The notes under the pieces are model-generated. The model did not search any database. It saw only the letters and a program-made list of their open reading frames with translations, and was not told the DNA's origin. Both the position numbers and the translations under genes were made by a program. From Burkholderiales bacterium (GTDB lineage: Bacteria; Pseudomonadota; Gammaproteobacteria; Burkholderiales; Gallionellaceae), in assembly GCA_038327315.1 (NCBI GenBank), contig JBBQKX010000002.1, forward strand, positions 423 through 64,422: a DNA stretch of 64,000 nt, given 5' to 3'. Positions 40,483 through 64,000 of the stretch are shown here, in pieces; positions within the stretch are counted from its first letter, which is position 1; each line of letters begins with the position of its first letter.

Positions 40483-40494
40483 GGATTTAGCCTA

Positions 40495-41760: not shown

Positions 41761-41784
41761 ATTAAACTTAATAAAGGAAATAAC

Positions 41785-42297: not shown

Positions 42298-42302
42298 TCA
42301 TC

Positions 42303-43046: not shown

Positions 43047-43054
43047 TCCCCCTT

Positions 43055-43714
43055 ATGTCTGATTCACTATCCAACGCGCAACTGCGCATCACTGAGATTT
43101 TCTATTCCTTGCAGGGCGAGACTAATCGTGTCGGCCTGCCCACTGTATTCATACGCCTGACTGGCTGTCCTCTGCGTTGTACATATTGTGATACCGCTTA
43201 TGCCTTCACTGGCGGCGAGCAGATGTCTATAGAAAGCATCATGGCTCAAGTCGCAAGCTTTGCACCGCAATACATCACGGTTACTGGCGGTGAGCCGCTA
43301 GCACAGAAGAATTGTATCGTGCTGTTACAGGCTTTATGTGATGCGGGTTATCAGGTGTCGCTGGAGACGGGTGGCGCGATGGATATCAGTGAAGTCGATG
43401 CAAGAGTGATGCGGGTGGTCGACATCAAGACGCCGGGCTCAGGCGAGTTGGCGAAGAATCGTTGGGAGAATCTTGCTTTACTCACTTCAAATGATGAGAT
43501 CAAATTTGTGTTGTGTGACGAAGCGGATTATCTGTGGGCCAAGTCTCTTATTATCGAACAGCAACTCGCAGATAAATGTCCCATTTTATTTTCGCCGGTG
43601 CATGGCACGATGAATCCTACACAATTAGCTGAATGGATATTGCGTGACCGCTTGCCGGTGCGTTTGCAAGTGCAGTTGCACAAGATTCTGTGGAACAACG
43701 CGGCGGGGCACTAA
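43055..43714 (+). CDS. queE: 7-carboxy-7-deazaguanine synthase
   Basis: [28 protein letters not shown]. Confidence 0.95.
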
Positions 43715-43716
43715 GT

Positions 43717-44391
43717 ATGAAGAACGCAGTCATTTTACTGTCGGGTGGTCTGGATTCGGCAACCGTTTTGGCGATGGCGCGCAAGCAGGGTTATGAATGC
43801 TATGCATTGAGCGTTGATTATGGTCAGCGCCATCATGCAGAGCTCGCGGCTGCGCAACGTGTCGCTAAGACGCAGGGCGCGCATGAATTGCGCGTGGTGC
43901 GTATCGATCTGACAGGTTTTGGTGGTTCTTCGTTGACCGATAACAATATTGCCGTGCCCGAGACACCTAGCAATGGTATTCCCTCCACTTATGTACCTGC
44001 ACGTAACACCATCATGTTGTCCATGGCGCTGGCTTGGGCTGAAGTGTTGGATGCGCAGCACATTTTCGTCGGCGTGAATGCCGTGGATTACTCGGGTTAT
44101 CCCGATTGCCGTCCTGCCTATATTGAAGCATTCGAACGCATGGCCAATCTCGCCACCAAGGCAGCCGTGGAAGGTCACCCGCTGACCATACATGCTCCCT
44201 TGCTACATATGAGTAAGGCAGAGATCATCGCGCAGGGCACTGCCTTGGGTGTAAATTACGCGCAGACCGTGTCGTGTTATCAAGCTGATGAGCAAGGTCA
44301 TGCGTGTGGTGTGTGCGATTCATGCCGTTTGCGTAGTGCGGGATTTGCAGCTGCGGGCGTGGTCGACCCGACAATCTATCGTGATTCGTAA
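43717..44391 (+). CDS. queC: 7-cyano-7-deazaguanine synthase
   Basis: SGGLDS, YVPARN, GYPDCR, CGVCDSC. Confidence 0.96.
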
Positions 44392-47469: not shown

Positions 47470-47521
47470 TGATTGTTAGAGTAACGCTGATATTAACAGT
47501 TTAGAGATGATAAAACCTTAC

Positions 47522-48445
47522 ATGCAGTCAGCTTATATTTCACATCCGCTGTGCCTCAAGCATGATATGGGGGCGCATCATCCAGAGACGCCGGCACGTA
47601 TCGGTGCCATAGAAGACCAGTTGATCGCATCTGGTTTACTAAGTTATCTGCGCCATTACGATGCACCTGAAGCGACACGCGAACAGTTGCAGCGTGTACA
47701 TGATGTGCAATATGTAGAACAGGTCTTTGCGGCCGCCCCCAAGCAAGGCATGGTGGAATTGGATGGTGACACTTCGATGAATCCTTACACTCTGCCTGCT
47801 GCATTGCGCGCGGCAGGGGCGGCTATACTGGCAGTGGATAAGGTGATGGCGGGCGAGGTCGAAAACGCCTTCTGTAATATCCGTCCGCCTGGACATCATG
47901 CGGAGCGCGGGCGGGCGATGGGTTTCTGTATCTTCAATAACATCGCGATTGCGGCGACCCATGCTTTATCGCATCACGGTCTGCAACGCATCGCCATCAT
48001 AGATTTCGATGTGCATCACGGGAATGGTACAGAACATATGTTCCATGAAGAGCCACGTGTGTTGATGTGCTCTACTTTTCAGCATCCCTTCTATCCCTAT
48101 TGCGGAGCGGATAGCGGTAATCAACATATGCTCAATGTGCCGCTTGCGGCGGGGGCAGGTAGCGCGGAGTTTCGTGCCGCGGTAACGGATGTCTGGTTGC
48201 CCGCTCTGCAGGCTTTTCAGCCGCAGTTGCTACTGATTTCGGCGGGCTTTGATGCGCATAGAGATGACGATATGTCCTCTTTGCAATTCATAGATAGCGA
48301 TTACGCTTGGGTGACTGAGCAGCTCAAGGCAGTTGCAGAACAGTGTTGCGCGGGGCGCATCGTCTCGGTGTTGGAGGGTGGCTATGAGTTGCACTCTTTA
48401 GGGCGCAGCGCTATGCAGCACGTTAAAGTCTTAAGTGGGCTTTGA
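47522..48445 (+). CDS. Zn-dependent histone-deacetylase-family protein
   Basis: HPE, RPPGHHA, GFC, DFDVHHGNGT, SAGFD, LEGGY. Confidence 0.94.
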   Translation: MQSAYISHPLCLKHDMGAHHPETPARIGAIEDQLIASGLLSYLRHYDAPEATREQLQRVHDVQYVEQVFAAAPKQGMVELDGDTSMNPYTLPAALRAAGAAILAVDKVMAGEVENAFCNIRPPGHHAERGRAMGFCIFNNIAIAATHALSHHGLQRIAIIDFDVHHGNGTEHMFHEEPRVLMCSTFQHPFYPYCGADSGNQHMLNVPLAAGAGSAEFRAAVTDVWLPALQAFQPQLLLISAGFDAHRDDDMSSLQFIDSDYAWVTEQLKAVAEQCCAGRIVSVLEGGYELHSLGRSAMQHVKVLSGL

Positions 48446-48579
48446 ATATAGTGCGCTGATCGGGTAAAACAAACGTAGCAGCTGTCGTAATAATTTAGGC
48501 GCGGTCTAGGCTATTCTTAGGTAAGATTCAGCATGCGCGCCTATCCGTGGCGCGCTTTTCAATCCGGCGATCATTCAAT

Positions 48580-49746
48580 ATGAAAATTCACGAATATCAA
48601 GGCAAAGAGATCCTACGACAGTTTGGTGTTCCTACCCCTCGCGGTATCGCATGTTTCGCTGCAGATGAAGCTGTGTCAGCAGCGAAGCAACTGGGTGGCG
48701 CAGTATGGGTGGTGAAAGCGCAGATTCATGCGGGTGGTCGCGGCAAGGGCGGTGGTGTGAAAGTTGCCAAATCGCTGGACGAAGTGCGTAGTGCGGCGCA
48801 ACAGATATTGGGCATGCATCTGGTCACGCATCAGACAGGTAAGGGCGGCCAAGTGGTACGTCGCCTGTTGATTGAAGAGGGTGCGCAAATCGCTAAAGAA
48901 TTCTATCTCGGTATGGTGGTCGACCGCGGTACACAGCGTGTGGTACTGCTGGCCTCTAGCGAAGGTGGTATGGAGATCGAAGAAGTCGCCGCACACCAAC
49001 CCGAAAAGATACACAAGATATTCATCGATCCCGCAGCAGGCCTAATTCCTGCAGAAGCCGCTGCAGTAGCCAAAAAGATAGGGATGCCAGATGCTGCTGT
49101 CGCCGAGACAGTTGTGGTGTTGCAAGGTCTGTATCGCGCCTTCGTTGAAAAGGATGCGATGCTGGCCGAGATCAATCCGTTGGTGTTGACCGCTGCGAAT
49201 CGTGTCATCGCACTGGATGCAAAATTTAATTTCGATAGCAACGCACTGTATCGTCATCCAGAAGTCGTGGCTTATCGCGATTTGGACGAAGAAGATGCGG
49301 CTGAGATCGAAGCTTCCAAGTTTGATTTGTCCTACATCTCTTTGGATGGCGACATAGGTTGTCTGGTGAATGGAGCAGGTCTGGCGATGGCGACCATGGA
49401 TATCATCAAGTTGTATGGTGGTAGCCCTGCCAATTTCTTGGATGTCGGCGGTGGTGCAACTACCGAGAAGGTTACTGAGGCGTTTAAATTGATGCTCAAG
49501 AACCCCAATCTCAAAGCCATCCTGGTGAATATCTTCGGCGGCATCATGAGGTGTGATGTGATTGCCGAGGGCGTGGTTGCCGCTGCAAAAGAAGTGCATT
49601 TGACGGTTCCTTTGGTTGTGCGCTTGGAAGGCACGAACGTGGACCTAGGCAAGAAGATATTGGCTGATTCTGGTCTCCCCATCATCTCCGGGGCTGACAT
49701 GGCAGATGCCGCACAGAAGGTCGTTGCCGCAGCGAGGAATAAATAA
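48580..49746 (+). CDS. sucC: Succinyl-CoA synthetase beta subunit
   Basis: [35 protein letters not shown]. Confidence 0.98.
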
Positions 49747-50627
49747 TGTCTATACTCATCGATAAGAACACCCGCGTGATGACCCAAGGGATGACTGGTA
49801 AGGTCGGTCAATTCCACACCACCAATTGCATCGCCTATGCCAATGGCAAGAATTGCTTCGTGGCTGGTGTTACGCCTAATAAGGGCGGGCAGAACTTTGA
49901 AGGCGTGCCTATCTACAACAGCGTACTGGAAGCGAAGCAGCAGACTGGCGCGACCGTGTCTGTTATCTATGTGCCGCCTCCTTATGCTGCTGCCGCTATC
50001 GATGAAGCAGTGGAAGCTGATCTGGATCTGGTGATCTGTATCACCGAAGGCATTCCCGTCCACGACATGCTCAAGACCCGCTACAAGATGAAGGGTAAGC
50101 GTACCTTGCTCATAGGACCTAATTGTCCTGGTCTGATCACGCCTGATGAAATCAAGATCGGCATCATGCCTGGTCATATCCATCGTAAAGGTCGTATTGG
50201 TGTTGTATCGCGTTCTGGGACGCTGACCTATGAGGCGGTCGGTCAGCTAAGCGCGCTGGGCTTGGGGCAGTCTTCCTGTGTTGGTATTGGTGGTGACCCT
50301 ATCAATGGTATGAAGCATATTGATGTGCTCAAATTGTTCAATGACGATGCTGACACTGATGCGGTGATCATGGTTGGTGAGATTGGCGGTAGTGACGAGG
50401 AAGAGTGCGCTCGCTGGATTAAGGATAACATGAAGAAGCCAGTAGTCGGTTTTATCGCCGGCGTCACTGCGCCACCTGGAAAGCGCATGGGTCATGCGGG
50501 CGCAATCATCTCGGGCGGACAGGGCGGTGCTGACACCAAACTGGAAGTGATGGAAGAATGCGGTATTCATATCACTCGCAATCCTGCCGAGATGGGGCGT
50601 TTGATGCAGAAGATCCTTAAAGGCTAG
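49746..50627 (+). CDS. sucD: Succinyl-CoA synthetase alpha subunit
   Basis: [23 protein letters not shown]. Confidence 0.98.
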
Positions 50628-50685
50628 AACTGGGCTCCCACGACTGCGTTCTAGATGACGCGTCATTTATCTTAAGGTCGTTCAG

Positions 50686-51411
50686 ATGTTAGAGATGTTG
50701 CTTAGCCCCCCATTCTGGGTGGATGTGTTCAAGATCATCATGATTGATATCTTGCTTAGCGGTGATAATGCCGTAGTCATTGCTTTGGCTTGTCGTAATC
50801 TTCCTTTGGAGCAACGCAAGAAGGGCATCCTGTTGGGTGTGCTAGGTGCCATACTTTTACGTGTGGTGCTGACCTTCTTCGCGGTCAGCCTGCTTTCCCT
50901 GCCTTATTTAAAGCTGGTCGGTGCAATCTTGCTAATCTGGATAGGTGTGAAGTTATTGTTGCCTGAAGACGAGCACGGTGAAGACAAAATAAAGGCAGAC
51001 ACGCGTTTGTTTGGTGCCGTAAAGACCATCATCATTGCCGACTTCGTAATGAGTTTAGATAACGTGCTCGGTGTGGCTGCTGCTGCTAAGGGCAATGCTT
51101 CATTGCTGGTGTTCGGTCTGTTAATCAGCATTCCTTTGATCGCTTGGAGCAGCCAGTTAGTACTCAAATTGATAGATCGTTTCCCTATGGTGATTTATGT
51201 GGGTGGAGCATTGTTAGGTTATGTCGCGGGTGAAATGTTGGTTAGTGAAGCATTGTTTTCTACTTTGATCGAGTCTTATCATCAGCTTCATCTGGCTGTT
51301 CCTGTTGCATGTGCGCTGTTGGTATTGACACTGGGCAGATGGTTGGCGGTTCGCAAAGCTGGTGCGGGTAGAGTAGTCGATCTGCTCGATGCCAAAGTGG
51401 ACGGGAAGTAA
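50686..51411 (+). CDS. TerC/YjbE family membrane protein
   Basis: DILLSGDNAVVIALA, ADFVMSLDNVL. Confidence 0.92.
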   Translation: MLEMLLSPPFWVDVFKIIMIDILLSGDNAVVIALACRNLPLEQRKKGILLGVLGAILLRVVLTFFAVSLLSLPYLKLVGAILLIWIGVKLLLPEDEHGEDKIKADTRLFGAVKTIIIADFVMSLDNVLGVAAAAKGNASLLVFGLLISIPLIAWSSQLVLKLIDRFPMVIYVGGALLGYVAGEMLVSEALFSTLIESYHQLHLAVPVACALLVLTLGRWLAVRKAGAGRVVDLLDAKVDGK

Positions 51412-51423
51412 ACGGAGAGTGCG

Positions 51424-51849
51424 ATGAAGATATTGATACCAGTGGACGGCTCTGACAGCGCGAACCATGTAATTAAATATGTGTTGAATAGTAGCGTATG
51501 GCTACAGCAGCCACCGCAGATATATTTACTCAACGTGCAATGGAAAGTGGCGACAGGCAACGTAAAGTTGTTCATCAACAAGGATACGATCAACGATTAT
51601 TACCGCGAGCAGGGTTTGGCGGAGTTGGCAGGCGCCAAAGCGCTTTTAGATGCGGCTGGTGCAGCCTATGAGTATCACATTAGCATTGGTACGCCAGCGG
51701 AAGCCATCGTGAAATACGCACGGGAACATGAGATAGATCAGATTGCCATGAGTAAGCAGGGGCAGGGCGGCTTGCAATCTTGGTTGCTAGGTTCGGTGGT
51801 TAGTAAGGTATTGCACATAGCCGAGTGTCCTGTTTTGGTGCTTAAGTGA
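51424..51849 (+). CDS. Universal stress protein
   Basis: KILIPVDGS...LLGSVVSKVL...PVLVLK. Confidence 0.92.
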   Translation: MKILIPVDGSDSANHVIKYVLNSSVWLQQPPQIYLLNVQWKVATGNVKLFINKDTINDYYREQGLAELAGAKALLDAAGAAYEYHISIGTPAEAIVKYAREHEIDQIAMSKQGQGGLQSWLLGSVVSKVLHIAECPVLVLK

Positions 51850-51963: not shown

Positions 51964-54486
51964 GTGGAGATGAAAAACTGGTCGTTCTTGAAGCAAGATT
52001 GGTTTGTCGGGATATTGGTTTCGCTCGCATTGCTGCTCGCGATGAATACCGACCTGATGCAAAGTTTAGAGCGCAAAGCTTATGACTTGGGGGTGAAAGC
52101 CACTAATCGCATTCCTAGTGACAAGATCGCAGTGATCGCCATCGATGATCAGAGTATCGCGAATCTAGGGCGTTGGCCATGGCCGCGTGAGATCCACGCC
52201 AAGATGATAGATGTGTTGAGTGCAGGACATGCCAAAGTCATCGCTTATACGGTGTTCTTCTTCGAGCCGCAGGTAGATGCAGGCTTGAGCTATATATATA
52301 AGATCGCTGATCTGGTGGCCAACTCTTCCGTACAGCAAAGTCCAGATGCGCCCGCATTAAATGAATTATTACTGGATGCTGTAAAAAATCTAAATAACGA
52401 TCAGAAGCTCAGTGACAGCATGGCTAGAGCGAACGACGTGTTGCTGGGCACCTATTTTGATCTGGGTGAGCCTCAAGGTAAGCCTGATCAAGCTCTACCC
52501 GAATATGTGGCGCGCCAAGATTTGCCTAATGTACAAATGGGTACAGCTGCCCCTGCTTTGCCTTTACCTGCTCGTAGTGTGTTAGCTCCTATCCCGTTGT
52601 TGGGAGAGCATGCGGTATCTATGGGGCACTTGAATAGCATTCCCGATGTAGATGGTGCGGTACGTACCGAGCCGCTGGTAATCAGCTATTACGATCAGTA
52701 CTTCCCATCACTATCCCTGATGATTGCTGCCAAGAGCTTGAATTTAGAGAACAAAGATATTGCGGTGAATTTGGGTGAAAGTGTCTTACTTGGTAAACAG
52801 AAGGTTGCAACCGATGCGGCGATGCAGATGCATAGCTTTTTTTATAAAGATAACGACGGTCGACCTGCTTTCCCCGTGGATTCCTTCTACGATGTCTACA
52901 GCGGCAAGATACCTGCCGACAAATATCGCGATAAGATTGTCCTGATAGGTGCTTCAGCAGCTGGGGTGGGTTCCATGCAGGTGACCCCGATCTCGCCTGC
53001 GATGGCACCTGTTTTGATCTTGGCGCACTCGGTCTCAAGCATCTTGCAGGGCGATTATTTCGTCACACCACCGTGGGCCTCGCTGGCCGAGTTGGTGGTA
53101 TATGGGGTGATTGCGTTGTATTTGATACTCTTACTGCCTAGGTTGGGTGCTGGCATTGGTGCCTTGGTGACTGCCACCTTGTTCGCGGCACTACTGGCCT
53201 CGCATTTTTTCCTGATGACCAAGCAGGCGATGTGGCTACAACTGATGTTACCCGCGACCTTGTTGCTGGTGGGGCATTTGTTATTAACGACTAAACGCTA
53301 TTTGCTTACTGAAAAAGGCAAGCAAAAATCCGATGCCGAGTCTGCAGAAAGTAATCGTATGTTGGGATTGGCATTCCAGGGGCAGGGCCAGCTGGATATG
53401 GCATTCGATAAATTCCGCAAAGTGCCTTTGGATGCCAGTTTGATGGAGGTGCTCTATAACCTAGGCCTAGATTACGAACGTAAGCGTCAATTCAATAAAG
53501 CAGAGTCGGTATTTAAATACATGGCTGAGTTCAATTCTAAGTTCCGCGATTTGTCACAACGTTTGAATCAAGCCCACGAGATGGCTGAGACCGTCATTCT
53601 GGGCGGCGGATCTACGCGCGGCAATGCTAGTACCTTGGTGTTGGGTAGGTCGGGTGTGTCCAAGCCCATGTTAGGTCGCTATGAGATAGAGAGGGAGTTG
53701 GGCAAGGGTGCGATGGGGGTGGTTTATTACGGTAAAGACCCGAAGATTGGACGTGTGGTAGCAATAAAGACTGTCGCATTGTCGCAAGAATTTGAGGCCG
53801 ATGAATTGGCTGATGTCAAAGAGCGATTCTTCCGTGAGGCTGAAACTGCTGGACGACTCAATCATCCAAATATCGTCGCAATCTACGACGCCGGTGATGA
53901 GCATGATTTGGCATACATCGCGATGGAATTCCTCAAGGGAAAGGATCTGGTGCCTTATACCAAGCCTGATAATTTGCTCCCTCTAAAGACTGTGATGAGC
54001 ATCATCATTAGAGTTGCTGATGCACTGGATTATGCGCACAAGCAAAACGTGGTACACCGCGACATCAAACCCGCGAACATTATGTATGACCCAGACAGTG
54101 ATACGCCCAAAGTGACGGACTTCGGTATTGCACGTATTACAGATTCAAGCAAAACTAAAACTGGGATGGTGTTGGGTACGCCGTCGTTCATGTCGCCAGA
54201 GCAGCTCGCAGGTAAAAAGATACAAGGGAGTTCGGATCTGTTCTCATTGGGCGTGAGCTTGTATCAATTGGCTTGTGGTAAGCTCCCGTTCGAAGGTGAC
54301 TCCATGGCGCAACTGATGTTCCATATCGCCAATGATCCACCAACAAATATATTGAGTGTAAATCCAAATTTACCGATTTGCTTGGCAACCATAATTGAGA
54401 AGATGTTGGAAAAGAAGATAGAAGATCGTTTTGCGAGCGGTGCTGAGGTGGCGGAAGCTTTGAGATCATGTGCAGCAAGCATATAG
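51964..54486 (+). CDS. CHASE2-domain membrane Hanks-type Ser/Thr kinase with TPR-like linker
   Basis: CHASE2 (IDDQSI..LGRWPWPR, DVDGAVR, KIVLIG), 3 TMs, GKGAMG, VAIK, HRDIKPAN, DFG, GTPSFMSPE. Confidence 0.94.
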   Translation: MEMKNWSFLKQDWFVGILVSLALLLAMNTDLMQSLERKAYDLGVKATNRIPSDKIAVIAIDDQSIANLGRWPWPREIHAKMIDVLSAGHAKVIAYTVFFFEPQVDAGLSYIYKIADLVANSSVQQSPDAPALNELLLDAVKNLNNDQKLSDSMARANDVLLGTYFDLGEPQGKPDQALPEYVARQDLPNVQMGTAAPALPLPARSVLAPIPLLGEHAVSMGHLNSIPDVDGAVRTEPLVISYYDQYFPSLSLMIAAKSLNLENKDIAVNLGESVLLGKQKVATDAAMQMHSFFYKDNDGRPAFPVDSFYDVYSGKIPADKYRDKIVLIGASAAGVGSMQVTPISPAMAPVLILAHSVSSILQGDYFVTPPWASLAELVVYGVIALYLILLLPRLGAGIGALVTATLFAALLASHFFLMTKQAMWLQLMLPATLLLVGHLLLTTKRYLLTEKGKQKSDAESAESNRMLGLAFQGQGQLDMAFDKFRKVPLDASLMEVLYNLGLDYERKRQFNKAESVFKYMAEFNSKFRDLSQRLNQAHEMAETVILGGGSTRGNASTLVLGRSGVSKPMLGRYEIERELGKGAMGVVYYGKDPKIGRVVAIKTVALSQEFEADELADVKERFFREAETAGRLNHPNIVAIYDAGDEHDLAYIAMEFLKGKDLVPYTKPDNLLPLKTVMSIIIRVADALDYAHKQNVVHRDIKPANIMYDPDSDTPKVTDFGIARITDSSKTKTGMVLGTPSFMSPEQLAGKKIQGSSDLFSLGVSLYQLACGKLPFEGDSMAQLMFHIANDPPTNILSVNPNLPICLATIIEKMLEKKIEDRFASGAEVAEALRSCAASI

Positions 54487-54496
54487 GATAAAAACG

Positions 54497-55324
54497 ATGA
54501 AGATTGCAGAGGCGTTGCAGATCGTTAGTTTGACCCATCCAGGGATGGTGCGTACACATAACGAAGATAGCGTGAGCGTAGAAGCCGCGTGTGGACTGGC
54601 CGTTCTGGCGGATGGTATGGGTGGCTATAATGCTGGCGAAGTGGCGAGCGGTATTGCGGTCTCGGTTACGGCAAGTGAGATCGCACAGCGTTTGCAACAT
54701 GCTAACCCCACAGATATTGATACGGAAAGCTATGAAGAGTTAGCGGTAACTTTGTTGAGGAATAATATTTGCAAAGCGAATACTTCTATCTACCAAGCTT
54801 CGCAGAGTCAGCCCCAGTATGCAGGAATGGGTACGACCATAGTCGCGGGCCTATTCTATGACAACCGTGTTGCAGTAGCGCATGTGGGCGATTCGCGCAT
54901 GTATCGGCTGCGCGGAGAAACGCTGAGCACTATGACTAGGGATCACTCTTTATTGCAGGAGCAGATCGACAGTGGACTGATCAGTCTTGAAGATGCGCGG
55001 TACTCCAAGAATAAAAATCTTGTGACGCGTGCAGTAGGTATAGATGAAAAAGTTTTACCCGATGTACATGTCTATGATGTTCAACTTGGGGATATTTATC
55101 TGCTGTGCTCGGATGGGCTAAACGATATGGTGGAGGATGCTGATATCGAATCCGCACTGTTCGCGATGCAGGGGAATCTACCCTTAGCTGCAGAGCAGTT
55201 GATACAGATGGCGAATGACAATGGCGGACGTGATAACGTTTCCGTCATGCTGGTAAAGATACTTGAGGATTATGCTGTGCCACGCAGCTTGTCATCAAGG
55301 ATTATGAATTGGTTTAAAAAATAA
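54497..55324 (+). CDS. PP2C/Stp1-type Ser/Thr phosphatase
   Basis: R.HNED, LADGMGG, MGTT, HVGDSR, LCSDGL, GGRDN. Confidence 0.95.
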   Translation: MKIAEALQIVSLTHPGMVRTHNEDSVSVEAACGLAVLADGMGGYNAGEVASGIAVSVTASEIAQRLQHANPTDIDTESYEELAVTLLRNNICKANTSIYQASQSQPQYAGMGTTIVAGLFYDNRVAVAHVGDSRMYRLRGETLSTMTRDHSLLQEQIDSGLISLEDARYSKNKNLVTRAVGIDEKVLPDVHVYDVQLGDIYLLCSDGLNDMVEDADIESALFAMQGNLPLAAEQLIQMANDNGGRDNVSVMLVKILEDYAVPRSLSSRIMNWFKK

Positions 55325-55343
55325 CTGTGTAAGAGGTAATGCT

Positions 55344-56093
55344 ATGGCCGCAAAAGTGATATTGAGCATGGATGGGATACAAATAAAAGAAATCCCGTTA
55401 AGCAAAGAGCGTATGACCATCGGGCGTAAGTCCAGCAACGATATCGTGATCGATAACCTGGCGGTGAGTGGTGAGCATGCTGCCATCATCACCATATTGA
55501 ATGACTCGTTCCTTGAAGATTTGAATAGCACCAACGGTCTGGTAGTAAACGGCGTAGCGACCAAGAAGCATTTCTTGCAGAACAATGATTTAATCGAGAT
55601 CGGTAAACACTCGTTGAAATATGTGAATGATCAAGTGAGCAAGACTAGTGCTGCCGAGTTCGAGAAGACGATGGTGATGCGAGGCCCTGTCAAGATCGTA
55701 GCGGCAGCACCTGTGGAGATTGCTGAACCTACAGCTGGATTCACTCAGACTCAAATTCTAGCGAATAAGACACCGGCAGCGGTGGCAGCGGATAAGACCG
55801 ATAAGATAGATGGCCCTCTACCGACCAGTCAGATTGCTGTTGTGCAGATACTGTCTGGGCCTAACGCTGGTAAAGAGCTTGAATTGGTGAAGAATCTGAC
55901 CACCTTGGGTAAGCCTGGTGTGCAGGTTGCAGTATTGGCCAAACGCCCCCATGGTTATTTCATCACGCATGTAGAGGGTACTAGCTTCCCTGCTGTAAAT
56001 GGCAAGGACTTGAATGAGCAGCCGCATCAACTTAATGATCATGATTTGATAGATTTGGCGGGTGTGAAGATGGAGTTCTACTTCAAGAGTTAG
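55344..56093 (+). CDS. FHA-domain protein (canonical N-terminal FHA, degenerate C-terminal FHA-like domain)
   Basis: IGR...VSGEHA...DLNSTNG; second domain TTLGK...VNG...LNDHDLI. Confidence 0.9.
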   Translation: MAAKVILSMDGIQIKEIPLSKERMTIGRKSSNDIVIDNLAVSGEHAAIITILNDSFLEDLNSTNGLVVNGVATKKHFLQNNDLIEIGKHSLKYVNDQVSKTSAAEFEKTMVMRGPVKIVAAAPVEIAEPTAGFTQTQILANKTPAAVAADKTDKIDGPLPTSQIAVVQILSGPNAGKELELVKNLTTLGKPGVQVAVLAKRPHGYFITHVEGTSFPAVNGKDLNEQPHQLNDHDLIDLAGVKMEFYFKS

Positions 56094-56159
56094 GATAGAT
56101 GATTTGAACTCCTTATACCGACCTCTCATCTGGTTTCGGACGTTCTCTAAGGGGTCCGC

Positions 56160-58382
56160 TTGAAAAAAAATGCAATACTCATTGCGCTTGGTTTAATGCT
56201 GGTATTGCTTTTCGTAGGCAATGCAGCCAATTTTTATCGTTTGAGTTTTGTTGACCGACTTTCAGCCATCGTATACGACTATCGTTTGCGCATCAGTATG
56301 CCGCGAACGGTTGATGATCGTATTGTCATCCTCGACATAGACGAAAAAAGCCTCAAGGAGGAAGGGCGTTGGCCTTGGAGTCGCAATCACTTAGCAACGC
56401 TGATGGATCAATTGTTCGATCGATACCAGGTTGATGTGGTGGGCTTTGACGTGGTGTTTGCCGAACGTGACAATAGTTCGGGTCTAGATGTGCTGCAAAA
56501 ACTTGGGCAAGATCAACTCAAGTCGGATAAAGCGTTCCAATCAGCTCTGGAGCAGATCGCACCGCAACTTGAGTATGACCAACTTTTCGCTGAAAAAATC
56601 AAAGGCCGCAAGGTCGTCTTAGGTTATTACCTAACAAATCAGAAGAGCCAAAGTGAATCAGGCATGTTGCCACCGCCCGCATTTCCCGCTGGTGCATTCA
56701 AGGGCAGCCTAGTGGCTTTCACCACTTGGAATGGCTATGGTGCAAACCTGCCAGAACTACAGTCGGCGGCCTACAGTGGTGGCCACTTCAATCCATTGGT
56801 CGATAGTGATGGTGTGGTGAGGCGCGTGCCAATGTTGGTCGAATGCAAAGGTGGTTACTACCCATCGTTGTCCTTGGCGATGGTACAGGCAGTGTTGGGT
56901 CAGCCTAAAATAGTTATGGGTATGGCTGAGGGTAAAAATAGCGGATACGCTGGTTTGGAGTGGTTGGAGTTGTTTGCAGGTGATCGAACTTACAAGATAC
57001 CTGTTGATCAGGATGTTGCGAGTTTCATTCCCTACCGTGGTCGTCAAGGAAGTTTCCGTTATATATCTATCTCAGATGTGTTGCACGGGCGCGTCGATGC
57101 GGAAATGCTCAGGGGTAAGATTATCTTGGTAGGTACAACCGCTCCTGGATTATTGGATATGCGTTCCACACCAGTCTCCGAGGTATATCCGGGGGTGGAA
57201 GTACACGCCAATATGATTGCAGGCATTCTGGACCAAAATTTGAAGCAGCAACCTGCATACATGTTAGGGGCAGAGGTGTTGTGGTTGCTGCTAATCGGCA
57301 TTACATTGAGCGTGGTTCTACCTTTGCTTACCCCGATGCGCGCCATACTGGCATCGGTATTTGTGTTCGCATTGAGCCAAGCGTTGACATTAGGTATCTG
57401 GCAATACGCTGACTTGGTCATGCCAATTGCAAATAGTTTGGTGATGGTCGCGCTGTTATTCGCCTTGAATATGTCTTACGGCTATTTTGTCGAATCGCGC
57501 ACCAAGCGACAGATCACGAATCTGTTCGGTCAGTATGTACCCAGCGAATTGGTCGACGAAATGAGCAAGCATCCTGATAGTGTCTCCATGGTGGGCGAGA
57601 GCCGTGAGATGACAGTGTTGTTTTCGGATGTGCGCGGATTCACGACGATCTCTGAAGGCCTAGATCCGAAAGAGCTCTCTCTGCTGATGAATGAATTCCT
57701 CACGCCTTTGTCGCGCGTCGTTTACAAACACAGAGGAACGATAGATAAGTATATGGGTGATTGCATCATGGCATTCTGGGGAGCTCCGCTGCCGGATGTG
57801 AATCATGCAAAGAATGCGATTATTGCAGGTATAGAGATGCAGTTAACACTAAAGAAACTGCAAGTACACTTCAAGGAGCGCGGTTGGCCTCCGATCAAGA
57901 TTGGGGTGGGCATCAACACAGGTAGGGTCAGTGTAGGAAATATGGGTTCAGAAGTACGTGTTGCGTATACGGTGATGGGAGATGAGGTCAATCTGGCATC
58001 GCGTCTGGAAGGCATAACCAAACAATACGGCGTCGGCATTGTCGTGGGTGAGAATACGCGCAATACGGTGAGCGATTTTGTGTATCGCGAACTTGACCAT
58101 GTGCGGGTAAAAGGTAAAGATAAGCCCATTGCAATTTATGAGCCTTTGGGTTTGCAATCTGAGGTTGATAAGTCGACTCTAGAAGAGTTAAAACTGTTCC
58201 ACGAGATGCGTAGACTCTATCTCAAACAGAATTGGGAGCAAGCAGAACTTCAACTGATGAATTTGCAGCGCATTTCACCTGAAACTGAACTTTATGGAAT
58301 CTATATGGAACGCATAGCTCACTTTAGGAAGAGCCCTCCACCAAGCGATTGGGATGGCGTCTACGTGTTTCAGACCAAATAA
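56160..58382 (+). CDS. CHASE2-domain class III adenylate cyclase
   Basis: CHASE2 plus 3 TMs; FSDVRGFT, DKYMGD, YTVMGDEVNLASRLE (Lys/Thr adenine specifiers). Confidence 0.94.
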   Translation: MKKNAILIALGLMLVLLFVGNAANFYRLSFVDRLSAIVYDYRLRISMPRTVDDRIVILDIDEKSLKEEGRWPWSRNHLATLMDQLFDRYQVDVVGFDVVFAERDNSSGLDVLQKLGQDQLKSDKAFQSALEQIAPQLEYDQLFAEKIKGRKVVLGYYLTNQKSQSESGMLPPPAFPAGAFKGSLVAFTTWNGYGANLPELQSAAYSGGHFNPLVDSDGVVRRVPMLVECKGGYYPSLSLAMVQAVLGQPKIVMGMAEGKNSGYAGLEWLELFAGDRTYKIPVDQDVASFIPYRGRQGSFRYISISDVLHGRVDAEMLRGKIILVGTTAPGLLDMRSTPVSEVYPGVEVHANMIAGILDQNLKQQPAYMLGAEVLWLLLIGITLSVVLPLLTPMRAILASVFVFALSQALTLGIWQYADLVMPIANSLVMVALLFALNMSYGYFVESRTKRQITNLFGQYVPSELVDEMSKHPDSVSMVGESREMTVLFSDVRGFTTISEGLDPKELSLLMNEFLTPLSRVVYKHRGTIDKYMGDCIMAFWGAPLPDVNHAKNAIIAGIEMQLTLKKLQVHFKERGWPPIKIGVGINTGRVSVGNMGSEVRVAYTVMGDEVNLASRLEGITKQYGVGIVVGENTRNTVSDFVYRELDHVRVKGKDKPIAIYEPLGLQSEVDKSTLEELKLFHEMRRLYLKQNWEQAELQLMNLQRISPETELYGIYMERIAHFRKSPPPSDWDGVYVFQTK

Positions 58383-58397
58383 CCGGGAATATTGATA

Positions 58398-59162
58398 ATG
58401 AAACTCAGAGTTTTGGGATGCAGTGGAGGAATAGGTGGCAATCTGCACACCACTTCGTTCTTGCTCGATCATGATGTACTGATTGATGCAGGTACCGGAT
58501 TGAACGAGCTCAGCTTGACTGAACTGAGTGTGATAGACCATATTTTCGTGACTCATTCTCACCTTGATCACATCGCCTGTATCCCTTTGCTGTTAGATAG
58601 CGTTGGTTTTATGCGTGAGCGTCCTATCACGATATATGCGACTGCCGAAACGCTAGATATTCTTAAGCAACATATTTTCAATTGGAAAATTTGGCCGGAT
58701 TTTAGCGAGATTCCCAATATGCAAAACCCCATCATGCGCTATCAGACGATAGAGCTGGGCGAGGAAATTGTATTGCAGGGCCGTAAAATCACCGCGATAC
58801 CTGCGAACCATGTTGTCCCTGCTGTTGGCTATCATTTGGATAGCGGTGTCGCAAGTCTGCTGTTCAGTGGAGACACAACAACCAACGATGCACTGTGGGA
58901 CATCGCCAACAAGATTAAGAATCTGCGACACATCATTATTGAGACTGCATTCTCGAACAGTGAAATAGGGATGGCAATTCTGTCTAAGCATCTGTGCCCG
59001 AGCTTACTGGCTGAGGAGTTGGAGAAGTTCCAAGGTGATGCACAGATTTACATCACACATCTTAAACCAGGTGAAGTTGAGTTGATTATGCGTGAGATCG
59101 ATCAGACCGCACATAGATTGCGCCCAAAAATGTTGCTAAATAATCAGACATTTACTTTCTAG
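58398..59162 (+). CDS. Metallo-beta-lactamase-fold (class II-like) 3',5'-cyclic nucleotide phosphodiesterase
   Basis: VLGCSGG, THSHLDH, FNWKIWPDF, SGDT, HL.P, THLKP. Confidence 0.85.
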   Translation: MKLRVLGCSGGIGGNLHTTSFLLDHDVLIDAGTGLNELSLTELSVIDHIFVTHSHLDHIACIPLLLDSVGFMRERPITIYATAETLDILKQHIFNWKIWPDFSEIPNMQNPIMRYQTIELGEEIVLQGRKITAIPANHVVPAVGYHLDSGVASLLFSGDTTTNDALWDIANKIKNLRHIIIETAFSNSEIGMAILSKHLCPSLLAEELEKFQGDAQIYITHLKPGEVELIMREIDQTAHRLRPKMLLNNQTFTF

Positions 59163-59172
59163 AGATACGAAG

Positions 59173-60240
59173 ATGAGCTATGCGCTGGACATCAGAGTAT
59201 TAGCAAATTTGGAACCCATCGCTGCATTTAGTGCCGCCCGTCTGCGCGAGTTGTTGGATTATTGTCATACAGAGAATATCGCCAAGGGAACGGATCCATT
59301 CAAGCGCCACGGACTGAGTGGTCAGTCTGTGTACCTAGTGCGGGGTGAGATTGAACTGATTTATCAGGATGGCAATCGTGTAGTTGTCAGCGCGCAATCC
59401 GAATGGGCTAAACATCCTTTGGGTAAGCGTCAACCGAATATTGTTAGTGCAATGGCACGGGAAGATAGCCAGTTGCTGCGTATTGAGGATGAGTTGCTGG
59501 ATCGAATGGTGACATGGGATCAACTTTCTGGCCATGATATATCGAGTCCAGAAAAACAGGCGGTGAGTGAAAGCAAGAAACATTTACTGAATTCTGGGAT
59601 GTTTAGCGCCGAAAGTTTGCGCAATGGACCTTTGGCTCACTTGCCTACAGCTAACATTGGGCAATTACTCAATCGTATCGAGACGATTGCGGTATGGGCA
59701 GACGAAGTCATCATCCGGGAGGGTGAAGAGGGAGACTATTACTATCTGATCGACACAGGACGCGCGCAAGTTACAAGACTGGTTGGCGGTGTGAATATTG
59801 TGTTGGCTGATCTTAAAGCAGGTGATGTGTTTGGTGAAGAGGCGTTAGTCTCAGATGCAAAACGCAATGCGACGATCACGATGATGACAAATGGCGTGTT
59901 GCTGCGCCTAGGTCGTCAGGACTTTTTAAATCTACTACAGGAGCCTTTGCTGCATAAGGTGAATTTTACCGATGCAAAAACAAACGTCGAGCATGGCGCT
60001 GTCTGGTTAGATGTCAGGCACCCACCTGAATACCGTTATGACAGATTGCCTGGCGCAATCAATGTGCCTTTGAGTGATATACGCAGCGCAATCGGTGTTT
60101 TGGATAAAGATAAGAAGTACATAGCCTATTGCCAGAGCGGTCGTCGTAGTGCAGCAGCAGCATTTATTTTGGCGCAGGCAGGATACGATGTTGAAGTATT
60201 GGATGGTGGATTGTGGTCTGAGTCTGCAGTAACGCAATAA
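59173..60240 (+). CDS. Tandem cNMP-binding domains fused to rhodanese
   Basis: IIREGEEGDYYY, FGEEAL...RNAT phosphate-binding cassette; LDVR..EY..LPGAINVP, YCQSGRRS. Confidence 0.88.
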   Translation: MSYALDIRVLANLEPIAAFSAARLRELLDYCHTENIAKGTDPFKRHGLSGQSVYLVRGEIELIYQDGNRVVVSAQSEWAKHPLGKRQPNIVSAMAREDSQLLRIEDELLDRMVTWDQLSGHDISSPEKQAVSESKKHLLNSGMFSAESLRNGPLAHLPTANIGQLLNRIETIAVWADEVIIREGEEGDYYYLIDTGRAQVTRLVGGVNIVLADLKAGDVFGEEALVSDAKRNATITMMTNGVLLRLGRQDFLNLLQEPLLHKVNFTDAKTNVEHGAVWLDVRHPPEYRYDRLPGAINVPLSDIRSAIGVLDKDKKYIAYCQSGRRSAAAAFILAQAGYDVEVLDGGLWSESAVTQ

Positions 60241-60261
60241 CAAATTAGTAAGGGACGGGTA

Positions 60262-62637
60262 ATGAGTATTGATGAAAATACAGGTGGGGTGAGCGGCCAG
60301 TTGTTGTTCACTAAAAGCTTGAACGATGTGATTAACAAGGTTCATGCCGCGAACAATATCGATGAAATCATGCTCGATGTGAGCAAGGATATCTGTACAT
60401 CGTTTAATGCAGACAGACTCACGATCTACGTAGTTGGTGAAGACGGCGCCTCGCTTATTTCTAAAGTCAAAACTGGACTGAATTCCTTCAAAGACCTGAA
60501 GCTACCTATTGCCGAGCAGAGTGTCGCTGGCTATGTGGGTGTACACAAGAAAACACTCAATATCAAAGATGTTTACGACGAAGATGAACTGGCAAGTCAC
60601 AGCAATCATTTGCGTTTTTTGCAGGAAGTCGATAAGCGTACCGGCTATCGTACCAAGCAGATGCTCATAGTGCCTATCCTTGATCAGGATAATGGCTTGG
60701 TGGGTGTGATTCAGGTCATCAATAATAAAGCGGGACTTCCTTTCTCTTCCATGGTGGAAGAAGGTTTGCAAGAGTTAGCACAGAGCATGGCGGTGGCCCT
60801 GCGTCAAAGACAAAAGACCAATACAGTCAAAACTAAATATGACTTCCTAGTTAGCGATGCGGTGCTGTCGGCGGCCGAATTTGAGTTGGCGACCCGTACG
60901 GCTAGGCGCAAAGGGATAGATGTAGAAGAAGTCTTGATAGATGAGTTTCAGGTTGGCGTCCCTATCTTGGGCAAGGCGCTATCCAGCTTCTTCGGTGTCG
61001 ATTACGAACCCTTCAAAGCAGATCGGATTAAGCCATCAGACCTGTTGCGCAACCTCAAGCGCGAATATGTGGAAAGCAGCCACTGGTTACCTATAGAGGA
61101 AAATCAAGATGGCTTGATTATCCTCACAACGGACCCAGAGCGGATACAGGCATCGCGTATCGTTAATAACATTTTCTCGCGTCATAAACTGGTATACAAA
61201 GTTTGTTCGCAAAGAGAGTTTCGACAAACACTCGATGCATTCTATGGCGGTCGCTCCAGTGCTGATGGAACAGGTAACTTCCTAGCAGATGAGTCCTCCA
61301 TGGACGATTTGCTCTCCAGTCTGGGCGGAGATGAGGAAGAGATTGGTGCGGTCCAAGATGATGTAAGTGCTGCTGCCGATAACGAGTTGGTTAAACTCGT
61401 CAATAAGATCATCGTCGATGCTTATCGTATGGGCGCATCTGATATCCATATTGAGCCATTGCCAGGCAAAGGTAAGACGCAGATACGTGTTCGCAAAGAT
61501 GGTACTTTGATGAATTTGATCGAGGTTCCTGCCACATACCGCAATGCCTTGGTGACTCGTCTCAAGATAATGTGTGATTTAGATATCTCTGAGAAGCGCA
61601 AACCACAGGATGGCAAAATCAAGTTCCGAAAATTCGGGCCTTTGGATATAGAGTTGCGTGTAGCAACCATCCCCTCTCAGGGGGGGGTAGAAGATGTGGT
61701 GATGCGTATACTGGCATCAGGTGAGCCATTGCCGTTGGAAAAGATGGGTTTTTCGGCGCGCAACAACGAACTCATCAAATCAACAGTCAGCAAGCCGTAT
61801 GGTTTGTTCTTCGTTTGCGGTCCTACTGGTTCAGGTAAAACGACAACACTGCATTCCATTTTGAAATACATCAATACGCCTGAGACCAAGATTTGGACCG
61901 CTGAGGATCCTGTCGAAATCACCCAAAAGGGCTTGCGTCAGGTTCAGATTAATAAGAAGGCAGGTTTGGATTTTCCTACCATCATGCGCGCTTTCTTACG
62001 TGCTGATCCGGATGTGATTATGGTCGGTGAGATGCGCGACAAAGAAACCGTCTCCATCGGTATCGAAGCATCACTAACAGGTCACTTGGTTTTTGCTACC
62101 TTGCATACCAACAGTGCGCCAGAGTCCATACTCCGTTTGCTGGATATGGGTATGGATCCGTTTAACTTTGCCGATGCGCTCTTGGGCATCCTTGCTCAGC
62201 GTTTGGCTAAGCGCTTATGTGCAGATTGTAAAAAACCACATGTTGCTAGCCCAGATGAAATCAAAGCGATACTGAATGAATTTAGTCTTGAATTGGCAAA
62301 CACAGAGTCGTGGAAGAAGGATCCCGCTGCATCTATGAAAGCGATATATGCAGATTGGATCAAATCCTTTGGTGACGAAAAGGGACAGATTATGATTTAT
62401 GAGCCAGTCGGTTGTGATAAATGCTCAGGGACAGGCTATAGGGGGCGTGTTGGTTTGCATGAGTTGTTATTAGGTTCGGATATTATCAAGAAAGCCATAC
62501 AGGAACATGCCCGTGTTGCAGAGCTGTTGGCCTTAGCCTTGGAAGACGGAATGCACACGCTGAAGCAGGATGGGATAGAGAAGGTCCTACAAGGGATCAC
62601 CGATATGCACCAAGTACGTGCCGTTTGTATTAAATAA
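60262..62637 (+). CDS. GAF-domain PilB/GspE-family secretion ATPase
   Basis: N-terminal GAF; ASDIHIEP, GPTGSGKTTT, EDPVE, VGEMRD, TGHLVFATLHTN, CADC/CDKC. Confidence 0.93.
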   Translation: MSIDENTGGVSGQLLFTKSLNDVINKVHAANNIDEIMLDVSKDICTSFNADRLTIYVVGEDGASLISKVKTGLNSFKDLKLPIAEQSVAGYVGVHKKTLNIKDVYDEDELASHSNHLRFLQEVDKRTGYRTKQMLIVPILDQDNGLVGVIQVINNKAGLPFSSMVEEGLQELAQSMAVALRQRQKTNTVKTKYDFLVSDAVLSAAEFELATRTARRKGIDVEEVLIDEFQVGVPILGKALSSFFGVDYEPFKADRIKPSDLLRNLKREYVESSHWLPIEENQDGLIILTTDPERIQASRIVNNIFSRHKLVYKVCSQREFRQTLDAFYGGRSSADGTGNFLADESSMDDLLSSLGGDEEEIGAVQDDVSAAADNELVKLVNKIIVDAYRMGASDIHIEPLPGKGKTQIRVRKDGTLMNLIEVPATYRNALVTRLKIMCDLDISEKRKPQDGKIKFRKFGPLDIELRVATIPSQGGVEDVVMRILASGEPLPLEKMGFSARNNELIKSTVSKPYGLFFVCGPTGSGKTTTLHSILKYINTPETKIWTAEDPVEITQKGLRQVQINKKAGLDFPTIMRAFLRADPDVIMVGEMRDKETVSIGIEASLTGHLVFATLHTNSAPESILRLLDMGMDPFNFADALLGILAQRLAKRLCADCKKPHVASPDEIKAILNEFSLELANTESWKKDPAASMKAIYADWIKSFGDEKGQIMIYEPVGCDKCSGTGYRGRVGLHELLLGSDIIKKAIQEHARVAELLALALEDGMHTLKQDGIEKVLQGITDMHQVRAVCIK

Positions 62638-62641
62638 CGAT

Positions 62642-64000
62642 ATGACATCCGCACCGAATCTTAGGGATCGTTTAAAAGAACTCAACGAAATCGGTATTGC
62701 GTTGTCTCAGCCTTTGGATATCAATAGCCTGCTGGAGACAATACTGGAGGCAGCCAAGCGCATCACGAACGCAGATGCAGGTACATTGTATTTGCATGAA
62801 TACGAAAAGAAGGTGTTGCGCTTTGAAATATTGCGCAATGACAGTTTGAAGATTGCCATGGGCGGTACGAGTGGTGAGCCTATCACCTACTATCCTATAC
62901 ATTTGTATGACGAGTTCGGTCACCCCAACCACGCTATGGTGGTTAGCCACTCAGCGCTCTCTGGTGAAACAGTCAATATTCCTGATGCGTATGAGGCTGA
63001 GGGATACGACTTTTCTGGCACACAAAAATTTGATCAGAAGACAGGCTATCGCTCGCAATCTTTTCTGGCAGTGCCGATGCGCAATCATGAGGGTGAAGTA
63101 ATTGGTGTGTTGCAGCTCATTAATGCACAGAGCCGAGAGGACGGGTCTATCGTTCCATTTTCCAGCGATGATCAGCAGCTGTTGGAATCGCTCGCTTCGC
63201 AAGCTGCAATCGCATTAACGAATCGACGGCTAATCGCGCAGATGGAAGAGTTGTTTGAGTCATTCATCAAACTCATCAATACAGCCTTGGATGACAAGTC
63301 TCCGTATACAGGAGGGCACTGTGAGCGAGTTCCCGTTCTGACCATGATGTTGGCAGAGGCAGTGACTAGGACCAAGCAGGGGCCGCTCAGCGACTTTGTG
63401 ATGACTGAAAGAGATAGGTATGAGCTCAGAATCGCAGGGTTGTTGCATGATTGCGGCAAAATAACGACCCCAGTACATATCGTGGATAAGGCTACAAAGT
63501 TACACACGCTATTGGATAGGATAGAACTGATCAACGATAGATTTGAGGTGTTGAAGCGGGATAGCGAGATACGGATGCTAAGAGAATTGCTGGCTGCAGG
63601 AGATGCTGGTGAAAATATGAAGTCAGATATTAGAGACAAGCATGAAGTACGTGCGCGTCAATTAGATAGCGACAGGGAGTTTTTGCGATTTTGTAACATC
63701 GGCAGCGAATTGATGTCGGAACAGGATCAGCAAAGAGTTAGAGACATCGCAGCTTACCAATATCACAACGCTGAGGGCCTAGAAGTTAATTTTTTGACTG
63801 AAAATGAACTGCAAAACTTGACCATAAGATCAGGTACGCTGACTGAGGCAGAGCGCAAAATTATCAATCACCATATCGTTGTGACAATCAAAATGTTGGA
63901 GGCTTTGCCTTGGCCAAATCACCTGAAGAACGTACCTGAGTATGCAGGTGGGCACCACGAACGCATGGATGGTAAGGGATACCCTAGAGGGCTGAAACGG
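62642..64000 (+). CDS. GAF plus HD-GYP phosphodiesterase, runs off the window end (absent from ORF track)
   Basis: Manual translation from ATG 62642: LNEIGIALS...DQKTGYRSQSFLAVPM...KSPYTGGHCERV...LHDCGK...HHERMDGKGYP. Confidence 0.92.
   Translation, partial: MTSAPNLRDRLKELNEIGIALSQPLDINSLLETILEAAKRITNADAGTLYLHEYEKKVLRFEILRNDSLKIAMGGTSGEPITYYPIHLYDEFGHPNHAMVVSHSALSGETVNIPDAYEAEGYDFSGTQKFDQKTGYRSQSFLAVPMRNHEGEVIGVLQLINAQSREDGSIVPFSSDDQQLLESLASQAAIALTNRRLIAQMEELFESFIKLINTALDDKSPYTGGHCERVPVLTMMLAEAVTRTKQGPLSDFVMTERDRYELRIAGLLHDCGKITTPVHIVDKATKLHTLLDRIELINDRFEVLKRDSEIRMLRELLAAGDAGENMKSDIRDKHEVRARQLDSDREFLRFCNIGSELMSEQDQQRVRDIAAYQYHNAEGLEVNFLTENELQNLTIRSGTLTEAERKIINHHIVVTIKMLEALPWPNHLKNVPEYAGGHHERMDGKGYPRGLKR

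Follow-up and report, generated by a model that had tools for sequence, protein, structure and literature searches.

PilB is held to be the near-universal extension motor of type IVa pili (T4aP), the messenger known to act directly on such motors is cyclic di-GMP (c-di-GMP), and cyclic AMP (cAMP) is said to exert its effect at the level of transcription, as in the Pil-Chp/CyaB/Vfr pathway of Pseudomonas aeruginosa, where a membrane adenylate cyclase links cAMP to T4aP by way of Vfr (PMC11656802, available text). Two further kinds of extension ATPase are close to the subject of this report: MshE and other MshEN ATPases, which receive second-messenger input at the N-terminus (PMC5013675, available portions), and TfpB of Acinetobacter baylyi, a phylogenetically separate extension ATPase whose gene lies apart from pilC and which acts on the T4aP machine (PMC8213720, available portions). 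Here, we describe an eight-gene cassette in 64,000 nucleotides of a Gallionellaceae genome (GenBank assembly GCA_038327315.1, contig JBBQKX010000002.1, positions 423 to 64,422; this whole stretch is called the window) that encodes an extension ATPase with a fused N-terminal GAF domain (the GAF-ATPase). Like the P. aeruginosa pathway, the cassette has a membrane adenylate cyclase, but here cAMP is predicted to gate the motor directly. We consider it very probable that the GAF-ATPase is a T4aP extension motor, and likely, given that role and judging from its residues, that it binds cAMP and is controlled by it. On balance, we favor the combined reading that this cassette at the pilA locus carries a T4aP extension motor that replaces PilB and is switched by cAMP on its GAF domain.

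The GAF-ATPase (791 residues; window 60262..62637, + strand), the proposed T4aP motor, consists of a GAF domain, a degenerate MshEN-type N1 domain (N1D) and a PilB-type extension ATPase (Pfam GAF, MshEN and T2SSE). It belongs to the T2SSE family (PF00437; 382.7 bits, cut-off 24.9) and conserves Walker A (GPTGSGKTT), the Asp box (AEDPVE), Walker B (GEMRD), the His box and a four-cysteine site. The N1D-N2D-C-terminal domain layout, the catalytic motifs and the four-cysteine site are common to PilB (Myxococcus xanthus 3jc8, Geobacter 5tsg/5zfr, Thermus PilF 5oiu); unlike PilB, the GAF-ATPase has a cAMP-type GAF at its N-terminus and an insert in the four-cysteine region, and its gene lies at the pilA locus instead of next to pilC, filling the genomic role of the lost pilB. 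In both sequence and fold comparisons with the PDB it comes closest to PilB/PilF, and GspE follows closely; in a model of the orthologue from G038, the closest sampled relative (90% identical; pLDDT 87), the top fold matches are PilF/PilB (TMt 0.92) with GspE interleaved. Because it scores below all three equivalog cut-offs, the GAF-ATPase is not a member of PilB (TIGR02538; 477 bits, cut-off 675.65, with a true PilB at 850), GspE (TIGR02533; 441 bits, cut-off 630, and not linked to gspD or gspF) or TfpB (NF053534; 389 bits, cut-off 850, a separate clade); it likely works like PilB while lying outside PilB membership. Phylogenetically it forms its own long-branch clade, sister to PilB in the first tree (support 91/85). 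A predicted complex between its N1 region (residues 186-335 of the G038 orthologue) and PilM of the same genome scored 0.01, where the mark was 0.32, and is used neither for nor against the motor role.

Other proteins lie near this clade. L187 (G119:C1:471065-475294) is a platform-less extension ATPase of 797 residues that stands beside the GAF-ATPase clade in the tree and has a different N-terminal domain. P0160, P0162, P0170 and others are distant relatives of 780-1000 residues with extra N-terminal sequence ahead of the GAF-N1 region, and one distant relative is named as the type II secretion system (T2SS)/T4P ATPase of a Nitrospinaceae metagenome-assembled genome (MAG), so the family reaches past Betaproteobacteria.

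The assembly (86.5% complete) encodes five extension-type ATPases and four platform genes. Four of these ATPases have platform genes as neighbors: GspE lies with GspF and GspD, the pair of MshE-like proteins lies with MshG, and the last belongs to a second cluster resembling that for mannose-sensitive hemagglutinin (MSHA) pili. The fourth platform locus, pilC-pilD (contig C65), is without an ATPase, and 135 bp separate its pilC from an upstream corC-like gene. In canonical PilB loci of the order, pilB abuts pilC in 25/25 (with corC upstream in 14); in the family, pilB lies within 1.5 kb of pilC in 0/30 loci, and corC is directly upstream in 27/30. The pilB gene is cleanly deleted family-wide.

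Distribution matches this deletion. Of 100 family genomes with a completeness of 90% or more, 97 matched for GAF-ATPase, 99 for PilM, 0 for canonical PilB, 71 for GspE and 63 for TfpB; the family PilB negatives (0/101) were accepted because the order-wide PilB search, serving as positive control, matched 141/251 genomes. In the order sample (250 genomes, each at least 95% complete), PilM occurs with GAF-ATPase and without PilB in 66 genomes from 19 families, with neither ATPase in 0, with both in 50 and with PilB only in 84; among PilM-negative genomes, 7 have PilB only, 2 have GAF-ATPase only and 41 have none of the three. The GAF-ATPase is therefore present in 66/66 PilM-positive genomes without PilB versus 50/134 with PilB, and 116/118 of its carriers have PilM, the pattern expected if the GAF-ATPase displaced PilB. 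TfpB, too, is absent from 23 of the 66 PilB-less genomes, all with GAF-ATPase present. In G030 (100% complete), GAF-ATPase, PilM, PilC and PilT have all been lost and GspE is the only T2SSE-family match. In G011 and G114, both complete genomes, every extension-type ATPase except the GAF-ATPase has a platform gene as neighbor. The first-pass annotation, made from the window alone, had called the motor an orphan and linked it to pilus extension: the label is apt locally, though beyond the window pilA adjoins, PilM co-occurs and the ATPase fills the gap left by pilB, and the pilus link is borne out by the adjacent pilA and by both PilM tallies. The co-occurrence search proposed there finds that GAF-ATPase tracks PilM of T4aP (97 versus 99 family genomes) and not GspE of the T2SS (71). 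The genomic evidence is strong that many Betaproteobacteria use the GAF-ATPase as their main motor.

The best PDB match of the motor GAF is the cAMP-binding CyaB2 (1ykd, 5e-25). The CyaB2 cAMP contacts R291, T293, I308, D356 and N359 (PMC4411481, available portions) align to R52, T54, V69, D124 and T127 of the motor; R52, T54, D124 and T127 are invariant across 77/77 close homologues, and V69 is V, I or L in all of them. The NKFDE motif described in the same paper is kept in part, with N154 and F161 invariant, K156 mostly K or R, and the D position variable. These residues place the motor GAF, by prediction, among cyclic nucleotide monophosphate (cNMP)-binding GAFs of the CyaB2/phosphodiesterase (PDE) class. 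Both cassette GAFs fall in the same sequence class as those of Anabaena CyaB2, PDE2/5/10, PmGH (4mcw) and Tlr0485; unlike in all of these, the output of the motor's GAF is a motor ATPase. A relaxed form of the MshEN motif RLGxxLLxxGLVxxxxLxxxLxxQ (Wang 2016; PMC5013675, available portions) is found in 0/91 aligned GAF-ATPase rows and is present in MshE of the same genome, and a c-di-GMP-binding MshEN reading of the motor N1 was rejected on that count. Compared with MshE, a conserved K-Y-D-x-L replaces RLGxxL...LxxQ, and the predicted ligand is cAMP, bound through the GAF. cAMP is favored as ligand because the neighboring cyclase has ATP-type specificity residues, its Lys and Thr being what we take to be the ATP-selecting positions. 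A post-translational cAMP switch, as proposed in the first-pass annotation, thus gains residue-level support at the predicted pocket. Its companion observation, that a CRP-like regulator is lacking, holds within the window but not genome-wide, the assembly having 8 Crp/Fnr helix-turn-helix (HTH) and 14 cNMP-binding matches over cut-off; since eight Crp/Fnr proteins are encoded elsewhere in the genome, cAMP may also act by a transcriptional route.

Immediately downstream, and overlapping the motor gene by 20 bp, lies a gene for a GAF-HD-GYP cyclic-dinucleotide phosphodiesterase (549 residues; Pfam GAF and HD_5; + strand, 62618..64000 and on to window-equivalent 64267 on contig C2). Its HD277-278, HHERMDGKGYPRGL, RxxxxADIFEA and RPY motifs are conserved over 61 rows and agree with the HD, HHExxDGxGYP, RxxxxAD and RPY signature of HD-GYP phosphodiesterases, which predicts activity on c-di-GMP or cGAMP; Y-T-G stands where a predicted binuclear subgroup is defined (PMC4159591). 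PmGH (4mcw; PMC4159591) and Tlr0485 have the same GAF-HD-GYP architecture, and the cassette enzyme differs in a long insert after the HD motif, its motifs being intact. Tlr0485 is activated by cAMP, as stated in the available text of bioRxiv 10.1101/2021.11.05.467447. The major type IVa pilin gene pilA begins 223 bp past the HD-GYP stop (window-equivalent 64491; contig C2:64913-65077, cut by the contig end), and a sigma-54 motif (TGGCAC-N5-TTGC) is found about 115 bp upstream of it. The apparent lack of a pilin gene in the first-pass annotation was only an effect of the window edge. Nothing else in the assembly matches the major-pilin motif; at the corresponding site G038 carries two pilin genes. 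Because pilA directly follows the cassette and 34/54 loci with sufficient sequence have a pilin motif no more than 4.5 kb downstream of the ATPase, the cassette belongs to the pilA locus.

All eight cassette genes are on the + strand; they start at 51964 and reach the window end, separated by 10, 19, 66, 9, 10, 21 and -20 bp; the tight, co-oriented packing and the domains read from the sequence earlier are confirmed by Pfam matches over cut-off, and motif inspection finds every gene intact, with the catalytic motifs present in each enzyme. Neighborhoods were compared in the best 80 of more than 600 GTDB matches to the ATPase, many of which end at a contig edge or the 10 kb flank. Near the ATPase are the PDE in 70 of the 80 loci, HD-GYP in 64, the cyclase in 58, FHA in 58, PP2C in 57 and the CHASE2 kinase in 46, while the cNMP-rhodanese gene occurs in 29 (28 in place); about 20 of the 80, counted by eye, have the full eight-gene order. 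Since the order recurs across these loci around ATPase relatives, it is not a product of chance, and the neighborhood search suggested in the first-pass annotation thus comes out in its favor as to order, with modular content: the eight-gene set is not obligatory and cNMP-rhodanese is accessory. The closest named ATPase relatives are from Gallionella and Sideroxydans MAGs (about 76-86% identity), and Nitrosomonas, Nitrotoga and Methylotenera loci are also among the named relatives. In L088 and L089 the cassette is rearranged, with the ATPase divergent from a PDE - GAF-HD-GYP - CHASE2 cyclase block. One genome, G179, taken for a case of FHA without ATPase, was rejected as a contig-end artefact. 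Promoter and terminator scans of the locus gave counts at shuffle level (19 versus 22.8 and 12 versus 12.3, respectively).

The cAMP arm comprises three further genes. The cyclase (740 residues; 56160..58382, +) is a predicted membrane class III adenylate cyclase with a periplasmic CHASE2 domain (Pfam CHASE2 and Guanylate_cyc); FSDVRGFT, IDKYMGD and YTVMGDEVNLASRLE are conserved over 55 rows, and the two metal-binding Asp, the substrate Lys and Thr, and NxxxR are present, in roles that we presume from the class. The metallo-beta-lactamase (MBL)-fold hydrolase (256 residues; 58392..59162, +; PDEase_II, THSHLDH) resembles class II cyclic-nucleotide phosphodiesterases and is the most constant motor neighbor; it matches Pfam Lactamase_B_2/PDEase_II over cut-off, with 61 bits on PDEase_II (cut-off 23.7) over residues 48-110 only, and its best PDB matches, RNase ZS1 and yeast PDE1, are about equal (about 1e-7). 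The accessory protein with cNMP-binding and Rhodanese domains (355 residues; 59173..60240, +; Pfam) conserves the FGEEAL...RNA cassette and a CQSGRRS loop.

The phosphorylation arm opens the cassette. The kinase (840 residues; 51964..54486, +) is a membrane Hanks-type Ser/Thr kinase with a transmembrane segment, a periplasmic CHASE2 domain, three further transmembrane segments, a TPR-like region and the kinase domain (Pfam CHASE2 1e-51, Pkinase 7e-54; transmembrane segments predicted at 13, 370, 393 and 423), with LGKGAMGVVY, VAIK, HRDIKPAN and DFG intact; its CHASE2 is only about 24-26% identical to that of the cyclase, and the first-pass suggestion that one class of periplasmic cue could drive both arms is a conjecture. 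The PP2C Ser/Thr phosphatase (275 residues; 54497..55324, +; PP2C_2) belongs to the Stp1/IreP family (NCBIfam NF033484, 242.7, cut-off 230) and has RTHNED, ADGMGG, HVGDSR, LCSDG and GGRDN. The FHA protein (249 residues; 55344..56093, +) has a phosphothreonine-binding FHA domain (PF00498, 1e-18; G-R, S-x-x-H and N-G present), a variable linker and a conserved C-terminal domain of about 85 residues (window 55800-56093; LTTLGKPGVQVA...HVEG...ELAGVKMEF over 54 rows) that is without a Pfam match and is possibly a degenerate second FHA-like fold. FHA homologues occur in 104/118 GAF-ATPase genomes, 26/84 PilM-positive genomes without GAF-ATPase (many of these being paralogues of about 40% identity) and 1/50 PilM-negative genomes; by this distribution the FHA protein tracks T4aP, and the phospho arm is pilus-linked yet separable from the motor.

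Upstream of the cassette lies sucC-sucD-terC-usp (window 48547-51849), with terC upstream in 26/80 and usp in 25/80 loci. In other Betaproteobacteria the usual pilA neighborhood is sucCD-terC-pilA, and the cassette would then be an insert in it. Farther upstream are what we take, from the translations, to be a tolA-tolB-pal-cpoB-queE-queC cluster (39742-44391) and a pair of genes presumably for an acyl-CoA-synthetase/GNAT-type acetyltransferase and an HDAC-family deacetylase (44782-48445). Two loci concern other extension ATPases: at G000:C5:43825-47410 (L099), two tandem MshE-like ATPases precede mshG, and the first of them, on a very long branch, at 377 bits on TIGR02538 and with no relaxed MshEN motif, is possibly a degenerate or regulatory copy; at G000:C6:11628-23774 (L100), a second MSHA/T2SS-like system has its own ATPase (orthologues in G011, G056, G119 and G126), a platform, an MshL-type secretin over cut-off and an ExeA-like ATPase.

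We propose that a periplasmic cue at CHASE2 would set cyclase activity and that the MBL-fold phosphodiesterase would remove cAMP, as the motifs of the two enzymes suggest. cAMP would bind the motor GAF at the residues described above and, by analogy with CyaB and Tlr0485, switch the motor on, although activation is favored over inhibition by only a narrow margin. The active motor may then dock in trans on PilC/PilM, encoded elsewhere, and polymerize PilA. By lowering c-di-GMP, GAF-HD-GYP would damp the c-di-GMP-gated MshE/MSHA pilus and shift the balance from fixed attachment toward dynamic T4aP. The CHASE2 kinase, PP2C and FHA might form a slower phosphorylation layer on the pilus machine or the cyclase, the weakest step of the scheme. 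In lineages that retain PilB, the GAF-ATPase would be a second, conditional motor.

Several observations weigh against this reading. All evidence is genomic, and related genomes count as non-independent in the tallies, so that a Fisher p-value computed from the order table exaggerates the association. Tree support for joining GAF-ATPase and PilB is moderate, and with own_MshE1, G119_L191, own_PilT, own_PilU and G119_L187 removed, the rebuilt tree gives a GAF-ATPase/PilB/TfpB polytomy with a long-branch warning. PilM was not found in the assembly itself, where the mrcA-pilMNOPQ-aroKB block is wholly unassembled; because the flanking mrcA and aroKB are missing as well, the absence of pilM and pilQ does not represent real loss. 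In two fragmented genomes (G127 and G315), GAF-ATPase is present and PilM was not detected. The ligand of the motor GAF is not fixed by sequence, because isolated CyaB2 GAFb binds cGMP also (PMC4411481, available portions), and since the GAF of HD-GYP, itself of the CyaB2/PDE class, lacks the R291-equivalent Arg, cAMP control of that enzyme leans on the Tlr0485 precedent. It is plausible that the MBL-fold hydrolase is a cyclic-nucleotide phosphodiesterase, its predicted substrate coming from a partial Pfam match. The cassette arms are separable, because Nitrosomonas loci keep only PDE and motor, and three PilB-positive genomes (G168, G210 and G247) have PP2C, FHA and PDE genes without the motor (two with the kinase, two still adjoining pilin genes). 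The Nitrosomonas loci, in which the motor has no linked cyclase, also fit a T4aP motor whose GAF is not a cAMP switch, being structural or binding cGMP or another ligand, with cAMP acting through Crp/Fnr and cNMP-rhodanese. This alternative draws on the Crp/Fnr and cNMP-binding matches in the assembly and on the partly kept NKFDE motif, and we judge it unlikely in view of the invariant R52, T54, D124 and T127 and of the PDE as the steadiest neighbor of the motor.

TfpB bears on the motor role itself, as it is found in 43/66 PilB-less PilM-positive genomes and in 63/100 family genomes, and in all of these it could power extension; in G014 and G094 (120 and 140 contigs), PilM, PilT and TfpB are present and neither PilB nor GAF-ATPase was detected. 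An A. baylyi pilB pilT mutant is piliated via TfpB, and TfpB has been suggested as the sole motor in Pseudomonas fluorescens A506, a PilB-less species with tfpB only (PMC8213720, available portions). TfpB has no GAF, and many GAF-ATPase genomes encode a true TfpB as a gene of its own. That TfpB or another filament motor (MshE, the second MSHA-like ATPase or GspE) extends T4aP, leaving the GAF-ATPase an accessory or regulatory subunit, is nevertheless improbable: 23/66 genomes are without TfpB versus 0/66 without GAF-ATPase, the remaining ATPases adjoin their own platform genes, extension motors are generally non-interchangeable between systems (PMC11656802, available text), and the catalytic motifs of the GAF-ATPase are all intact. 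The first-pass annotation also offered secretion as an output, and the close GspE matches in fold and sequence could suit an alternative GspE of the T2SS. That role was rejected, the assembly having a separate locus with its own GspE (699, cut-off 630), GspF and GspD, and GspE being less widespread in the family (71/100 genomes) than GAF-ATPase (97/100); G030, moreover, keeps GspE and has lost GAF-ATPase together with its pilus genes. A membrane Hanks kinase, a PP2C and an FHA protein also make up the threonine-phosphorylation pathway PpkA/PppA/Fha1 of the type VI secretion system (T6SS), which the cassette trio resembles. The trio differs in its CHASE2 sensor, its FHA protein matches TagH/VI_FHA at only 33 bits (cut-off 120), VipB was not found in the 86.5%-complete assembly (an E. 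coli control matched), and the cluster abuts pilA. A secretion role of either kind is very improbable.

Our literature search turned up no paper that describes the cluster or an extension ATPase that binds cAMP, in line with the first-pass annotation, which knew of no experimental description; subscription papers and bioRxiv supplements were mostly outside its coverage, and a T4P phylogenomic supplement could list the GAF-ATPase clade. The word "GAF" does not appear in the available text of a review of PilB control from 2024 (PMC11656802), which describes no cAMP-binding motor. In the portions available of PMC5013675, the architecture appears as one unreferenced line of Supplementary Table 4 (Glov_1971), and the table gives no function, neighborhood or Betaproteobacteria for it. 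The available text of the ES-1/ES-2 genome paper (PMC3770913) lists pilMNOPQ, MSHA and pilT/U and mentions neither pilB nor the GAF-ATPase, and a term search of the Gallionellaceae pangenome paper (PMC10734462) found no mention of pili. The cassette is real, conserved and apparently uncharacterized.

Taken at its broadest, the proposal is that in about a quarter of sampled Betaproteobacteria (66/250, from 19 families, including Gallionellaceae iron oxidizers) PilB has been replaced by a third class of T4aP motor, switched directly by cAMP via a fused GAF and co-encoded at the pilA locus with a cyclase, a phosphodiesterase, a phosphothreonine switch and an enzyme that removes c-di-GMP and so silences the competing MSHA pilus, a statement that we advance tentatively, as a little short of an even chance. 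If true, it would account for genomes with pilMNOPQ, pilC and pilT yet without pilB, provide a direct test case for post-translational cAMP control of pilus extension, and tie CHASE2 sensors to an output that can be scored as piliation, twitching or surface attachment at Fe/O2 gradients. Pilus building in many Betaproteobacteria of environmental importance, iron oxidizers among them, would then depend on a different motor, gated by cAMP.

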